Below are positions 15,187 to 21,039 of a stretch of DNA of 64,000 nucleotides, one piece after another. The notes below the pieces were generated by a model. The model was not told where the DNA came from. It did not search any database and was given only the letters and a program-made list of their open reading frames with translations. Position numbers and translations under genes: made by a program. The first letter of the stretch is position 1. Every line of letters begins with the position of its first letter. The stretch is from Vicinamibacteria bacterium (GTDB lineage Bacteria > Acidobacteriota > Vicinamibacteria > Marinacidobacterales > Marinacidobacteraceae), in contig OY821641.1 in assembly GCA_963555995.3 (NCBI GenBank), positions 96,001 through 160,000 of the forward strand. The letters run 5' to 3'.

Positions 15187-17139
15187 GTGCACTCGGCTCC
15201 CCCGCGGCTGCTGATCGCGAATCGCGGCGAGATCGCCCGGCGGATCCTCCGTTCCGCCCGGGCGCGCGGCTGCCGGGTGGCCGTCGTCTCGACCGCCGCC
15301 GACCGCGGGACTCCGGTGCGGGACGAGGCCGATCGGGTCTTCGAGGTTCCGGGTTTTCTGGACGGTGGCGCCATCGTCGCCGCGGCCACCGGCTGGGACG
15401 CCGGACTGCTGCATCCCGGATACGGGTTCCTCTCGGAGAGTGCGTCGTTCGCCGAAGCGGTCGAGGCGGCGGGAATCGCGTTCGTCGGTCCGACGGCGAA
15501 GAGCATGCGCCGCCTCGGCGACAAGGAGGCGGCTCGCCGGACCGCCATCGCGGCCGGGGTTCCGGTGCTGCCCTCGCTCGACTCGGAGGGGCTCGCTTCG
15601 GAACCGGATCCGGCGGCGGCCGTGGAACGCGCCGGGGTGGGTTTCCCCTGCGCCGTGAAGGCGGCGGCGGGCGGCGGCGGCATCGGCATCCGGGTGGTCC
15701 GCCGCCGCGAAGCGCTGGCCGAGGCGCTCTCGGTGGCCGCCTCCGAGGCCCGCGCGGCGTTCGGCGACGGCCGCGTCTATGTCGAGCGCTGGCTCGACCG
15801 CCCGCGTCACGTCGAGATCCAGGTCCTCGGCGACGGGCGGGGAGCGGGAATCCACCTGGGCGAGCGGGAGTGCTCCGTCCAGCGCCGGCGGCAGAAGCTC
15901 CTGGAGTGGGCTCCGGGATTCGGCATCACGGCGGATCTGCGCGCCCGGATGGGCGAAGCCGCGCTGCGGCTGGTGACCGCGAGCCGCTACCGGGGGGCGG
16001 GGACGGTCGAGTTCCTGCTCGAACCGGACGGAGCCTTCCACTTCCTTGAGGTGAATACCCGGCTCCAGGTGGAACACCCGGTCACCGAGGCGATCTACCG
16101 GGTGGATCTCGTGGATGCGCAACTGGAGATTGCCACCGGAGGATGGCCCGCCGCGCTGCCGGCTCCGGTGTCCCGGGCGGAGTCGTTCGAACCCCTCCCG
16201 CCCCGCGGGGCGGCCTTCGAAGCGCGGATCGTCGCCGAGTCGCCGCGGAACGGATTCGCGCCCAGTCCCGGACATCTCCGCCGCTACCGGGAGCCCGAGG
16301 CGGACGGTGTGAGGGTTGACTCCGGGGTCGTCGAGGGCAGTCTGGTTCCTCCCGGCTTCGACTCCCTGATGGCGAAGGTCATCGCCTCCGGCGACTCGCA
16401 CGCCGCCGCGGCGGCGCGGCTCGCCTCCGCGCTCGAAGGGACCGTGATCCACGGGGTGGAGACGAACGCTTCGCTCATGATCTCCGTGCTGCGGCACCCG
16501 GACCTGCTCGGCGAACGCGTTCACGCCGGTTGGCTGGAGGAGCGCATCGAGGAGCTCGCCGCTTCCCGGCTCGCCCCCGAGGTGACGGCGCTCCTCGGCC
16601 GCGAAGGGGTGGCGGACGCGGTGGCGGCGGCCGCCTCGCGCCGGCGGACAAGCGAGGGCGCGCGCGTCTTCCGGTCGCTCGGCCGCTCGGAGAACTTCCC
16701 CGGCATGGAACCGGGCAGCCGCCCCGGCGACGTGGTGCTGTGCGGCCCCCCGGTCCGGGAGAGCGGCGCCGGCGAGGTGTTGACGCTGGCCGCGACGGCG
16801 CTCGCCGGCGGGCGCGCACTGGCGGTCACGGTGGGCGGTGAGACGCTGACTCTGCCGCTCTCCCGCGAGGGCGGGAAAGCGGCGACCCGGGCCGGTTCCG
16901 GCGAGGTCCGGGCCCCCCTCGCCGGCCAGGTCATCCGCATCCTCAGCGCCGGCAGCAGCGTCCACGAAGGCGACGTGGTCGCCGTGATCGAGTCCATGAA
17001 GATGCACTGGGAGATCCGCGCGCCGGCGAGCGGGACCCTGGCCGACATCGGCGCGAAAGCCGGAGACGCTGTCGCCGCCGGAGCGCTGTTGGTCCGGATT
17101 GCGGAGGATGGGGTAGGCTCGGTCCCGGAATCAGGATGA
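15187..17139 (+). CDS. Biotin carboxylase/biotin carboxyl carrier (acyl-CoA carboxylase alpha subunit)
   Basis: LIANRGEIA, HPGYGFLSE, ERECSVQRRRQK, EVNTRLQVEHPVTE, biotinylation motif ESMKM. Confidence 0.95.
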   Translation: MHSAPPRLLIANRGEIARRILRSARARGCRVAVVSTAADRGTPVRDEADRVFEVPGFLDGGAIVAAATGWDAGLLHPGYGFLSESASFAEAVEAAGIAFVGPTAKSMRRLGDKEAARRTAIAAGVPVLPSLDSEGLASEPDPAAAVERAGVGFPCAVKAAAGGGGIGIRVVRRREALAEALSVAASEARAAFGDGRVYVERWLDRPRHVEIQVLGDGRGAGIHLGERECSVQRRRQKLLEWAPGFGITADLRARMGEAALRLVTASRYRGAGTVEFLLEPDGAFHFLEVNTRLQVEHPVTEAIYRVDLVDAQLEIATGGWPAALPAPVSRAESFEPLPPRGAAFEARIVAESPRNGFAPSPGHLRRYREPEADGVRVDSGVVEGSLVPPGFDSLMAKVIASGDSHAAAAARLASALEGTVIHGVETNASLMISVLRHPDLLGERVHAGWLEERIEELAASRLAPEVTALLGREGVADAVAAAASRRRTSEGARVFRSLGRSENFPGMEPGSRPGDVVLCGPPVRESGAGEVLTLAATALAGGRALAVTVGGETLTLPLSREGGKAATRAGSGEVRAPLAGQVIRILSAGSSVHEGDVVAVIESMKMHWEIRAPASGTLADIGAKAGDAVAAGALLVRIAEDGVGSVPESG

Positions 17140-17399
17140 ACCACAGAATCACCACCGGCATCGGTGAGTTCATGTCCCGTGATTGGCAGCGGGTACGTGA
17201 CTTCAAGGACGACTATTGGGCCGGGCGAATCGAAAGGTTCGGGCCTCTCGAAGGACTGCGGATCGCCGACGAGTTGCGCCGACAGGCGATCCTCGCGAAC
17301 CCGGACTGGCCGGATGCGGCGAGCCGCCGTGAAGACCTGGACTCCCACATCCGCCTGGCCGACCTGTTCGCGCTCGCCGATGCAGCCCGCCGGCCCTGA
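17136..17399 (+). CDS. Small hypothetical protein, probable partner (antitoxin-like) of the downstream nucleotidyltransferase
   Basis: 87-aa ORF overlapping both neighbours; plausible coding composition; no family recognised. Confidence 0.55.
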   Translation: MNHRITTGIGEFMSRDWQRVRDFKDDYWAGRIERFGPLEGLRIADELRRQAILANPDWPDAASRREDLDSHIRLADLFALADAARRP

Positions 17400-17949
17400 G
17401 CTGCTGGCCGCGCTGGCGGCGGTCCTGAACCGATGGGGCCGCTGGTACCTGTTCGGTGCCCAGGCGGTCGTCGCGCATGGCGTGCCCCGGCTGAGCGCTG
17501 ACGTTGATGTCACGCTGCGCCTCGCTCCCGACCAACCGGATCAGTTCGTACGCGACATGGAGGCCGCCGGATTCGCGCTTGCCATCCAGGATACGGACTT
17601 TGTTCGGGAAACGCGCGTGATGCCGTTCGTCCATACCGCCACGGCCTTCCCGCTCGATGTCGTGTTCGCCGGGTCCGGCCTCGAGGACGAGTTTCTCGAG
17701 CGGGCGAAGACGACGGACATCGGCGGCGTGCCGGTTCCGTTGATTGACGTGGCGGATCTGGTGATTTCCAAGATTCTCGCGGGTCGCCCCAAGGACATCG
17801 AGGACGCGCGGAGCCTCTGGCGTCTGCACGGACCCGCAGTGGACCACCGCCGAATCCGGCATCTGTTGCGATCCCTCGAAGCGGCGCTCGACCGGAGCGA
17901 TCTCGTAGCCAGCTTCGAGACCATGCGGCGGACTACCGCGCCGCGCTGA
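17380..17949 (+). CDS. Pol-beta-superfamily nucleotidyltransferase (AbiEii/DUF6036-like)
   Basis: FGAQAVVAHGVPRLSADVD (G..AV...R...DxD) and DLVISKILAGRPKDIED motifs. Confidence 0.8.
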   Translation: MQPAGPELLAALAAVLNRWGRWYLFGAQAVVAHGVPRLSADVDVTLRLAPDQPDQFVRDMEAAGFALAIQDTDFVRETRVMPFVHTATAFPLDVVFAGSGLEDEFLERAKTTDIGGVPVPLIDVADLVISKILAGRPKDIEDARSLWRLHGPAVDHRRIRHLLRSLEAALDRSDLVASFETMRRTTAPR

Positions 17950-17963
17950 TCCGCGGAACGGCG

Positions 17964-18006
17964 GGGAGCGCCGGTGTTCACACCGGCATCGTGGCCGAAG
18001 GCCACG
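17964..18006 (+). repeat. REP-like palindromic unit (covariant stem)
   Basis: GGGAGCGCCGGTG-TTCA-CACCGGCA + CGTGGCC-GAA-GGCCACG. Confidence 0.8.
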
Positions 18007-18111
18007 CGAAGTGTGGTGCATGTCGGTGTGAAGGGGCGCATGTGTTCGCCGCGGGCGTCCGACCGTTTTGGGTTGCACGCGCTCCCGGGAAATCATGAGA
18101 GGATGGCTCCC

Positions 18112-18369
18112 ATGACGAAGCTGGCCGACGCGCGTGTATCGCTGAGGTTGCCCGCCTCGCTGAAGGCGGAAGCGGAGCGGCAGGCGCGGCGGAATGGGGT
18201 CTCGCTTAACCAGTTCATTGCGACGGCGCTCGCCGAAAAGGTCGGTGCGCATGGCGCTGCGGCTTTCTTTGCGGAAAGAGCGCATGGCGGTTCGGCGGCG
18301 AGAGCGATCGCCTTTCTCCGCGCGGTGCCGGACACGCCACCGGACGATCAGGACGCGCGGCGTTCCTGA
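18112..18369 (+). CDS. HicB-like/RHH antitoxin-family protein (orphan)
   Basis: SLRLPASLKAEAERQARRNGVSLNQFIATALAEKV. GAGAGG RBS; no adjacent toxin recognised. Confidence 0.75.
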   Translation: MTKLADARVSLRLPASLKAEAERQARRNGVSLNQFIATALAEKVGAHGAAAFFAERAHGGSAARAIAFLRAVPDTPPDDQDARRS

Positions 18370-18454
18370 TCGTGCCGGCCCCCCCGGCGTCCTCGGGGGT
18401 GACCCAGTCTTGGATGTCGCCAGGCGACGCCGTCCTGCCTGTCGCCTGACACGG

Positions 18455-18789
18455 AAAGACCGTAGAACCCGGGGGGCCGGTCACCGGAAAGACCGTAGAA
18501 CCGGGAGTCGGTGGGCGAAAAGACCGTAGAACCCGAGGAACCGGCAGGCGGAAAGACCGTAGAACCGGGGACCGGCGGGGGAAAAGACCGTAGAACCGGG
18601 GGGCCGGTGGGCGGAAAGACCGTAGAACCGCGGAACCGGCAGGCGGAAAGACCGTAGAACCGGGAGTCGGTGGGTGAAAAGACCGTAGAACCCGAGAGAC
18701 CGGCGGACGGAAAGACCGTAGAACCGCGGAACCGGCAGGCGGAAAGACCGTAGAACTGGGGAGCCGGTGGTCGAAGAGACCGTAGAACC
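18455..18789 (+). repeat. Interspaced tandem repeat array: 11 x AAAGACCGTAGAACC with 16-18-nt variable linkers
   Basis: Cores start at 18455, 18488, 18519, 18552, 18583, 18615, 18647, 18678, 18711, 18743 (…AACT) and 18775 (AGAG…). Confidence 0.95.
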
Positions 18790-18906
18790 GGGGACAGTCC
18801 CAACAATTCGTCGGGTAGGTCCACGTCTGGCAGAAAATGCCGTGGGTGGGGATCATGCGCCGCGCCCGACCCTGCTCATTCTCCGGAATGCGTGCCGCAC
18901 CCTCGG

Positions 18907-19296
18907 CTACGACCTGCTGTGACGGCGCGGACGGGATTGGGCGCGGTGGTGGATGTAGAGCTTCTCTGCGATCCGGGACAGGTACTCGTCACGCTCCTCG
19001 TCGCTGTCGAAGCACGGGACGGCGTCGTCGTCGAAATCGTGCTCGAAGACGGTCACGGCGCGACTGAAGTCGCCGTCCGGCAGGTAGTCCGCCCGCAGCT
19101 CGCCGTGGCGCAGTCGCACGTAGCCTCGATTTTCGGCATCGTCGAGGTCCACCATGTACTGCTCGGGGCCGATGGAGGTGATGAGCCGGAACACCGCTCC
19201 CCCGAACGTCACGGCAGAGTGCTCGGCCGCCAATCGTTCGGTGAAGAACGTCGGAAGTCCCACTGGGGTGTCGGGTAGGGGTTTGTCAGGACACAT
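18907..19296 (-). CDS. Hypothetical acidic protein (PEQY...GYVRLRHG motif)
   Basis: ATG 19296 with GAAGGTGA RBS and upstream TATAAC; 129 aa with globular composition. Confidence 0.7.
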   Translation of the reverse strand: MCPDKPLPDTPVGLPTFFTERLAAEHSAVTFGGAVFRLITSIGPEQYMVDLDDAENRGYVRLRHGELRADYLPDGDFSRAVTVFEHDFDDDAVPCFDSDEERDEYLSRIAEKLYIHHRAQSRPRRHSRS

Positions 19297-19476
19297 CGGT
19301 CGGTCACCTTCAGGGGGCGGCGGGTTATAGCGCACGGGAAGATCCGCAGGGTTTGCCGTGAGAACGCTGTCCCGCGGGTCGGCCGCCAGCAGGTGATGAC
19401 GCCGCCGGCTTGGAACGCTGACCTGGCTCGCCCGAGACGGGTAGCGGCACGTCGTCCGCGTGCCTTCGGCGCGCTG

Positions 19477-19582
19477 TGCCGGCTGAAGCCGGCGTTCCAA
19501 GCCGTACGTGCCTTCTCGCCGGGCGGCGCCGCGCGCTCTGCGGCCCTGCGGGCCGCGTGCCGACCTGAAGGTCGGCGCTCCC
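19477..19582 (-). repeat. REP-like cluster
   Basis: Minus strand: GGGAGCGCCGACC-TTCA-GGTCGGCA and TGGAACGCCGGC-TTCA-GCCGGCA. Confidence 0.8.
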
Positions 19583-19632
19583 TTCCGGTAGCGCCGCTCG
19601 GTCGGTGGAGGGGCAGGCCGTAGGCTTTGCGG

Positions 19633-21039
19633 ATGGACGCGGCGGGGACCGAGCGTACCGACGAGGGTGGTCGGGGGCTGGACATCTACATTGTCCTGTC
19701 GGTGCTGATCGGGGTCGCGGCGCTCCTTACCTGGGTCATTCCGGCGGGTCGGTACGAGCGGACGGTGCTGCCGGATGGGCGGGAGGCGGTGGTGCCGGGG
19801 TCGTACCAGGTCATCGAGCGGTCGCCGGCGGGGTTCTGGGAGGTGGTGACCGCGATTCCGGACGGGTTGACCGACGCGGCGAGCGTGGTGTTCCTCGTGT
19901 TCCTGTGCGCGGGCTCGGTGGGGGTGATGCGCCGGGCCGGGATCCTGGACCTCGGGGTGAACCGGCTGACGGCGGCCACCGGGCGGCGGGTCGAACTGCT
20001 GATCCCGGCGCTCATGTTCGGCTTCGCGGCGGTCTCGGGCGTGGTGGGGATGCCGGAGCTCTCCATTGCCTACCTGCCGATCGTGACCCCGATGCTCGGA
20101 CGGCTGGGCTGCGGGCGAACGACGGCGACCGCGGTCGCGCTGCTCCCCACGACCCTCGGCGCGGCGTTCGGGGTGACGGTGCCGGCGACCGTGGGCATCG
20201 GGCACCTGCTGGCGGGGCTGCCGATGTTTTCGGGGGCCTCCTACCGGTTCGTCTTCTTCCTGATCGTGCAGGCTGCGGCGGCCGTCTTCGTGGTGCGGCG
20301 GGCGCGGCGGGAGATCGCCCGGCGCCACGAGCCCCGCGACCCGCAGGAGACCATCCCCGCTTCGTCCGGCGAAACCGAGCCGGCCGCCTTCCGGGGGCGC
20401 CAGAAGGCGGCGGGCGTGGTGGCGCTCGGGCTGTTCGTCGTGTTCGTGGTTTTGGTCCTGACGCTCGGGCTCGGGTTCGAGGAAATCGGCGGCGCCTTCG
20501 TCGCGATGGCCGTCGTCGTTTCGCTGGTGGCGGGGCGGGGGTTGAACCAGATCTGCACGGATTTCAACGACGCGTTCCGGGAGATCCTGGTCGGCGCCCT
20601 GGTCTGCGGGGTGGCCCGCGGGGTGTCGGTGGTGATGACCGAGGGGATGGTCATGGACACCGTGGTGTACGGCGCGGCGCTGCTCGTCTCCTCGCTGCCG
20701 CCCGCGCTTACCGCCGTGGGGGTGCTGTTCGGGCAGACGGTCTTCAACTTCCTCGTCCCCTCCGGGAGCGGACAGGCGCTCATCACGCTGCCCATCCTGG
20801 TGCCGGTGGCCGACCTCGCGGGGGTCACCCGGCAGGTGGTGGTGCTCGCCACCCAGTGGGGCGACGGCATCACGAACGTGATCTTCCCGACGTCCGGGTA
20901 CTTCATGGCGACGCTCGTGATGGCGCGCGTCGGACTCCTGCAGTGGATCCGCTACTACCTGCCGCTCTTCGGGATCATCCTGCTGGTCGCGACGAGCGGG
21001 CTCGTCGTCGCCCAGCACATAGAGCTCGGCCCGTTCTGA
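19633..21039 (+). CDS. YfcC family (C4-dicarboxylate anaerobic carrier-like) transporter
   Basis: LTWVIPAGRYER, FNFLVPSGSGQA, QWGDGITN...PTSG; about 12 hydrophobic segments. Confidence 0.9.
   Translation: MDAAGTERTDEGGRGLDIYIVLSVLIGVAALLTWVIPAGRYERTVLPDGREAVVPGSYQVIERSPAGFWEVVTAIPDGLTDAASVVFLVFLCAGSVGVMRRAGILDLGVNRLTAATGRRVELLIPALMFGFAAVSGVVGMPELSIAYLPIVTPMLGRLGCGRTTATAVALLPTTLGAAFGVTVPATVGIGHLLAGLPMFSGASYRFVFFLIVQAAAAVFVVRRARREIARRHEPRDPQETIPASSGETEPAAFRGRQKAAGVVALGLFVVFVVLVLTLGLGFEEIGGAFVAMAVVVSLVAGRGLNQICTDFNDAFREILVGALVCGVARGVSVVMTEGMVMDTVVYGAALLVSSLPPALTAVGVLFGQTVFNFLVPSGSGQALITLPILVPVADLAGVTRQVVVLATQWGDGITNVIFPTSGYFMATLVMARVGLLQWIRYYLPLFGIILLVATSGLVVAQHIELGPF

Follow-up and report, generated by a model that had tools for sequence, protein, structure and literature searches.

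What is the row of eleven short, evenly spaced repeats that lies among small accessory genes in the chromosome of a Vicinamibacteria bacterium, and with what, if anything, does it work? The window, meaning the whole stretch of 64,000 nucleotides that was analysed, comes from a 3.8-Mb genome that is 93% complete (G000), and the features on which the answer depends are these:

17136 to 17949, plus strand: small ORF and DUF6036 nucleotidyltransferase, a synteny marker common to the relatives G008 and G015
18112 to 18369, plus strand: small HicB-family gene (Pfam PF05534), left of the IS end
18391 to 18451, minus strand: solo degenerate IS21-like terminal repeat, its outer end abutting the first array unit
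18452 to 18790, plus strand: phased array of 11 cores AAAGACCGTAGAACC, mean period 32 bp, with variable, GC-rich linkers
18791 to 18856, minus strand: 5' end of an unrelated gene, some 21 codons long and truncated at the right edge of the array
18882 to 18926, plus strand: 3' remnant of a RES-domain gene, 91% identical over 45 nt to L227:4100-4144
19627 to 21039, plus strand: DcuC-family transporter, a synteny marker for the locus

The cores (18455 to 18789) start at 18455, 18488, 18519, 18552, 18583, 18615, 18647, 18678, 18711, 18743 and 18775; nine are exact and two carry one mismatch, compared with a chance expectation of 0.6 at up to three mismatches, and a count of 11 was reached by 0 of 100 shuffles. 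An earlier, sequence-only reading of this DNA had the periods (33, 31, 33, 31, 32, 32, 31, 33, 32, 32) and linker lengths (16 to 18 nt) right, as well as the identity of linkers 6 and 9 and the single-base difference between linkers 2 and 7. The search of the bacterium's own genome that it had suggested was run at up to two mismatches, and no second site was found in the 3.8 Mb of G000. Across units 1 to 10 the mean pairwise difference was 0.013 in the core and 0.415 in the linker, and the run of 14 invariant core columns was matched by 0 of 100,000 column shuffles; for the core, this contrast does speak against a neutral minisatellite, as the earlier reading had argued. The period had been said to break any reading frame; two stop-free minus-strand frames do cross the array (18215-18856 and 18348-18824), both of which were read as shadow frames that switch between the repeat frames. 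The window array is a genuine, non-coding row of short direct repeats placed three helix turns apart. A promoter scan gave no signal above shuffles. None of the RNA runs listed contains the stretch, which is no evidence either way on its expression. The public sequencing runs X1 to X3, possibly the source sample of the window, covered 30 of 30 bins; none of the public-run contigs covers the entire array, so that the copy count of 11 depends on the assembly.

Two hairpins that had been described as bounding the array turned out not to be part of it, the left one lying inside the IS21-like terminal repeat and the right one being the junction with the truncated minus-strand gene. The IS21-like end is of a type with eight copies in the genome, and one copy precedes an istA-like reading frame in L012. 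The gene fragment shares 14 of 21 residues with the start of an ORF in locus L003 of G020.

Within the array, the YCGG motif was present in 10 of 10 linkers, as claimed, and from it the earlier reading had drawn short hairpins on the plus strand, proposing, among other options, an array of structured RNA of the type III antitoxin, TIGR or CsrB kind, or a single-stranded DNA hairpin substrate of a HUH/RAYT enzyme. Hairpins of 4 to 5 bp can indeed be drawn in most units on the plus strand, but they fold no better than shuffled sequence: the whole-array fold had a z of -0.40 on the plus and +0.41 on the minus strand, 11 to 171 of 200 linker shuffles folded as well as the individual units, and the minus strand folded better in 4 of 11 units. 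The hairpin was also lost in the orthologous G008 linker, which has CCAA instead of YCGG, and the invariant part of the unit is mostly unpaired. CCGG is its own reverse complement and is frequent at 70% G+C. For a processed ncRNA there was neither a folding excess nor an Rfam match above noise (one match over 17000-20000 at E values up to 5, at chance level). A CsrA gene, the counterpart of a CsrB-like sponge, was not found in the 93%-complete G000 and no Rfam match pointed to such a sponge; a Nop-domain gene (PF01798), as a TIGR-like array would have, was not found there either, in a search whose control was positive in 4 of 14 cases and whose Pfam model may miss divergent Tas proteins. No ToxN-type endoribonuclease gene adjoins the array, whose neighbours are the HicB-like gene, the gene fragment and an ORF, and the sole Y1 transposase lies 637 kb away, adjoining a different repeat. 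A structured RNA or HUH/RAYT substrate is accordingly a highly improbable account of the array, and the option among those first listed that the evidence favours is that of iteron-like sites phased at about three helical turns. Two further candidates were rejected: REP/BIME elements with a RAYT (a single locus, a hairpin that is not conserved, and Y1_Tnp at C1:751513 beside another repeat), and a CRISPR array, the 16-18 nt linkers being related by duplication and, as the earlier reading had noted, no cas gene matching among the 14 window ORFs scanned.

A candidate protein partner came from the same locus in relatives. Among 28 family genomes, exact paired cores were found in G000 and G008 only, and at this locus G015 has two copies with mismatches. 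In G008, where dcuC, the nucleotidyltransferase pair and the RES gene (intact there, by RES match) served to recognise the locus, two cores 32 bp apart and in the orientation of the window array lie 30-80 nt upstream of a gene for a 372-aa winged-helix paralog with the helix VGAANLTKRHL. The start of this gene is where the truncated fragment stands in the window, and its C-terminal tail resembles that of the window's HicB-family gene. The island upstream of dcuC (window 17136-19626 compared with L227 and L261) has been reshuffled, with a different block order in G008 and a partial deletion in G015. In runs X1 and X3, three contig records (287 nt, 133 nt and 290 nt) bridge one or more cores into the start of a G008-type gene, and records of the same depths (7.4 and 19.7) connect the HicB end to a core; we infer that the core-gene and HicB-core records of equal depth are one record. 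The gene-bearing contigs of these runs, from minor strains, differ from G000, which has no orthologue of the G008 gene (best winged-helix identity 52%, to another paralog). Since the partner gene is missing from the G000 locus, the window array is an orphan. G008 has the gene with two cores but lacks dispersed arrays, and G000 has 11 cores without the gene. The window array is probably a recent relic.

Searching G000 with the Fic-like_C model gave three sub-cutoff matches, each adjoining an array, and extension by tblastn brought the number of paralogs to six, all of which (6/6) flank an array with its own core. The paralogs are proteins of about 350 aa with basic amphipathic N-terminal helices, a proline linker and a C-terminal winged helix. 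A profile of this winged helix gave 80 matches in 22 of the 28 family genomes (6 of 28 had no such gene), from which 67 loci with a full-length domain were kept and partial domains left out. A phased array (at least three copies nearby) was present at 54 of the 67 loci (45 upstream, 12 downstream, 3 both), whereas random positions had one in 49 of 3000 cases and other accessory-gene loci, all over 3 kb away from any paralog, in 9 of 69; the phase set was picked after the arrays had been seen and was applied alike to the controls, and the accessory-gene control is generous because its queries came partly from array-bearing loci. The 13 loci that fail the rule include that of G008 itself, with only two copies. 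Neighbouring genes vary (toxin-antitoxin, restriction-modification, DUF4143, housekeeping), with no constant neighbour. Trypsin_2-like genes lie downstream of several paralogs of the 'MH..SL' clade (L202, L204, L206, L215), and at L175:7136-11347 genes for an ADP-ribosylglycohydrolase, DarT and a UvrD-like protein stand in a row between two phased arrays, adjoining an IS21. A motif resembling an IHF site occurs between array and gene start at 7 of 63 loci (L202, L206, L210, L222, L223, L231, L238) and in 22 of 5000 random windows; it is absent from 18300-19000 of the window. A tblastn search of plasmids with the partner domain gave no match, and the literature searched contained neither a pairing of winged-helix relatives with their own motifs nor an account of the family.

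The window array is one of a class. Intergenic arrays are numerous in G000, their periods lying near 21, 32, 53 or 65 bp, and eight core patterns form 32 clusters (at least two copies each) that are scattered over the chromosome and favour neither origin nor terminus nor one strand (13 of 32 on the leading strand). Family-wide, core spacings peak at 20-22 bp (85) and 31-33 bp (307). By inspection, the cores follow a common scaffold of three bases, GAC, CAC or GCN, three bases, and usually AGC TC, into which the window core fits as AAA GAC CGT AGA ACC. The six core families of G000 that have a paralog (the TTGACC family was assigned to its own partly by inference) have 2-10 loci, and the two families without a paralog have one locus each. 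For the other orphan arrays, synteny with genes of relatives was weak and the matches are possibly to multi-copy genes. An array of about 67 units with a 61-bp period at G000:C1:1462147-1466199 is CRISPR-array-like and presumably belongs to type I-E. Of the eight IS21-like ends of one type, four lie within 250 nt of arrays, which make up 0.5% of the genome; the arrays adjoined by IS21-like ends are at 114452, 183776, 2591409 and 3309487 of G000:C1, with further cases at L181:2480-2490 and near 11950 in L175, and two complete IS21 elements likewise terminate at an array or close to one. Phased arrays may be targets of IS21 or be moved by it.

A scan of viral contigs for paired cores gave 0 matches, and the five loci returned from metagenome contigs were rejected, all being unrelated coding or 14-mer repeats. 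Three copies of a second core, ACCGTAGAA, were found at 118 or more loci in GTDB; among the matches listed most were microsatellites or coding repeats, and 14 were inspected closely. At L126 (636 nt) and L137 (1079 nt), 14-15 ACCGTAGAA cores form AT-rich arrays outside coding sequence, with linkers that vary and core spacings of 32-34, 44 and 53-55 bp. In rumen Bacteroidales (L047, L054, L057, L060 and some 30 similar loci) ACCGTAGAA belongs to a dispersed 11-bp repeat element, sometimes in inverted pairs.

Whether core and helix correspond can be followed across the family. Cores, of about 15 types, track the clades of a winged-helix tree built on 86 columns, in which many forks are weak; such a match is expected without any recognition because a gene and its adjacent array are co-inherited. 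More telling cases are few, with one or two independent switches of helix and core only: L206, which falls inside the 'MHQHSL' clade, has the helix KDRSNL and the core GACCCC, not GCCCCA, with unchanged linkers. Paired copies of one core family occur in 1 of 28 genomes, the sole genome with its paralog, at seven loci, six of them unlinked. The TATCGACCGGA core family is present in 7 of 7 genomes with its paralog and missing from 15 without it, and arrays of this family were also found in six fragmented genomes in which the paralog was not detected. At L226 and L260 broken genes stand behind the array of another clade, and L176 and L207 share the text of the helix while their cores differ.

The winged-helix profile matched 2367 representatives at E values up to 0.001, and many of the best 150 matches outside the family carry 7-residue repeats just before the winged helix; five were confirmed as AlbA_2 and/or HATPase_c_4 proteins. 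At the DNA level the same repeats are 21-nt repeats with an array-like scaffold inside coding sequence. They were noted in proteins of the AlbA_2/HATPase_c_4 type, namely P0032, P0034, P0087, P0110, P0133 and P0156 and those at L160, L262, L263 and L265-L268, and the type of repeat varies with the helix of the winged helix. In a sample of the phylum, 4 of 300 other genomes matched, all four with this intragenic-repeat type. Judging from these sequences, the intragenic repeats are possibly self-binding sites. In the AlbA_2/HATPase_c_4-type gene at L160, ACCGTAGAA recurs at 22- and 11-nt spacing, so that here it is not a peptide repeat. D-R repeats and an [NK]LxxRH helix occurred together in 15 of 17 cases, compared with 4 of 21 others (38 proteins passing the repeat filter), in a post hoc test on related sequences in which a few family proteins passed the filter. 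Read in that frame, the window core gives K-D-R, and the partner helix is ANLTKRHL. The literature searched offered no account of AlbA/RecG-C intragenic repeats as binding sites. Upstream of Rep_3 initiators, at three checked loci (L085, L091, L072), the 9-bp ACCGTAGAA core is likewise arrayed at 21/22 bp, a known setting in which it could plausibly serve as a winged-helix site. Iterons of ACCGTAGAA with this spacing were seen at L085, L091, L132, L134 and L072, and a ParA gene adjoins L085; these would be uncharacterised replicons.

In the AlphaFold2 model of the partner protein, three long N-terminal helices (residues 23-150, pLDDT 56-79) are followed by a disordered proline linker and a winged helix at 252-331 (pLDDT >90). 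The N-terminal 140 residues are tryptophan-rich and amphipathic, with a median hydrophobic moment of 0.80 and a net charge of +17, and no transmembrane segment was predicted in 36 of 36 scored proteins (36 of 63 aligned proteins, those with the anchor motif). Foldseek and a PDB profile search returned generic winged helices only, none with an E value under 0.001, the best related PDB entry being the C-terminus of a Fic protein. An Atlas search with the N-terminal region gave no usable match, and no toxin family or fold match was found for the protein.

Taken from sequence, the window array, a row of direct repeats on double-stranded DNA, is likely a platform with many binding sites for a lineage-specific winged-helix protein, orphaned by the absence of that protein's gene. 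The best-founded step, which we hold with good confidence, is that the C-terminal winged helix would read the core over about 13 bp and that arrays would become loaded in this way. At a spacing of 21 or 32 bp, neighbouring copies would face the same side of the helix and many proteins could load next to one another; loading on the linked array could in addition titrate or repress expression of the gene itself. Only tentatively do we suggest that the basic, Trp-rich amphipathic helices of the N-terminus would lie on the inner membrane and that loaded arrays would tether several chromosomal sites there. After loss of the gene the window array would be a relic, unless one of the six paralogs cross-binds. 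The lack of origin, terminus or strand bias, the 6 of 28 genomes without the gene and the lack of a constant neighbour argue against an essential segregation role.

The same protein could instead be a toxin on a DNA leash, its amphipathic N-terminus being a membrane-damaging effector that is harmless while the winged helix sits on arrays and is released by array loss or phage-driven degradation (addiction or abortive infection), with the window array as a left-over antidote. The genes do lie among toxin-antitoxin, restriction-modification and other accessory genes, specificities diversify fast, array loci are more numerous where the genome has the paralog (2-10, against one each for the two families without), and arrays outlast genes, yet most genes retain an array. 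We nevertheless consider this unlikely, as there was no toxin family or fold match and no transmembrane segment, 13 of the 67 genes have no array under the rule, and G008 has two cores only.

Slippage offers another origin: a short operator beside the gene may have been amplified and then spread by recombination and IS21, copy number and orphan being unselected, which would make the array a neutral minisatellite. The duplication-related linkers (6 and 9 identical, 2 and 7 nearly so), the varying copy number (2 in G008, 11 here, with one contig looping back 95 nt), the four of eight IS21-like ends that lie no more than 250 nt from an array, the abutting of arrays of different cores in broken genes and the mismatches in both G015 copies are what such a history would leave. 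It would not account for a core that stays near-invariant while linkers drift, or for two- or three-turn spacing kept across families, and the core would still have to be a protein site; we regard wholly neutral amplification as improbable. Lastly, the arrays could be origins of a degenerate iteron replicon or integrative element, with the winged-helix protein as initiator or recombination accessory. This is suggested by the ACCGTAGAA core upstream of Rep_3 genes elsewhere and by the frequency of the IHF-like motif (7/63 loci compared with 22/5000 random windows), a motif that the window lacks over 18300-19000. It is very unlikely given that G000 has no Rep3 and the protein a single winged helix, that no ATPase, helicase or integrase is a constant neighbour, that there was no plasmid match, and that the three viral-contig matches were weak, the two inspected being of the intragenic-repeat type.

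If the array is a binding platform of the winged-helix family, an unexplained repeat becomes one entry in a natural library of protein-DNA pairs, with about 15 core types set against clades, and the concordant switch of helix and core at L206 is directly testable. Hundreds of Schlafen/AlbA-RecG-C proteins end in this domain and their 7-residue repeats may be DNA sites; were this true, intragenic DNA sites would be a general mechanism of self-recognition. More speculatively, and with the odds against it as a whole, the family may be a fast-diversifying set of membrane-active winged-helix proteins descended from Schlafen/AlbA-RecG-C self-site proteins, with a readable helix-to-base code that assigns every member a phased array of its own and with arrays that spread round the genome as DNA antidotes or chromosomal anchors. 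Should the N-terminus anchor DNA to the membrane or be a leashed toxin, this would be an undescribed chromosome-organising or defence module.

Several known systems share parts of this arrangement. Proteins with SLFN_AlbA_2 and HATPase_c_4 (RecG-C) domains have a homologous C-terminal Fic-like_C winged helix (in the partner it falls below the Pfam curated cut-off). Their N-terminus is enzymatic and their repeats lie in coding sequence, whereas the family described here has a helical N-terminus and non-coding repeats, upstream or dispersed; neither the G008 partner nor any of the six G000 paralogs has an AlbA_2 or HATPase_c_4 domain. Rep_3-family iteron replicons (F RepE, pPS10 RepA, R6K pi) likewise have direct repeats with a fixed core and whole-turn phasing beside a winged-helix gene. 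Their initiators carry Rep3_N and Rep3_C, whereas the G008 partner has a sub-cutoff Fic-like_C match only, one winged helix and an amphipathic N-terminus, and the setting here is chromosomal (a 3.8-Mb contig), with several paralogs and many dispersed arrays per genome. In the tandem-repeat plasmid centromeres parC/ParR and sopC/SopB, a direct-repeat array is loaded by many copies of one protein, as is proposed here; unlike in ParABS and ParMRC, no ParA or ParM NTPase was found among the annotated neighbours (genes within about 1.5-2.5 kb). As to the membrane, RacA/ram and Noc/NBS are DNA-membrane anchors in which a DNA-binding domain is joined to an amphipathic membrane part. RicO, with its site ricS, combines a sequence-specific DNA-binding domain with an amphipathic membrane-binding part (bioRxiv 10.64898/2026.03.06.710092). 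In all three, the sites are dispersed single motifs with a positional bias and a role in segregation or division; by comparison, the arrays described here are in tandem, show no origin bias and go with a patchy, multi-paralog family whose membrane helix is a predicted one.
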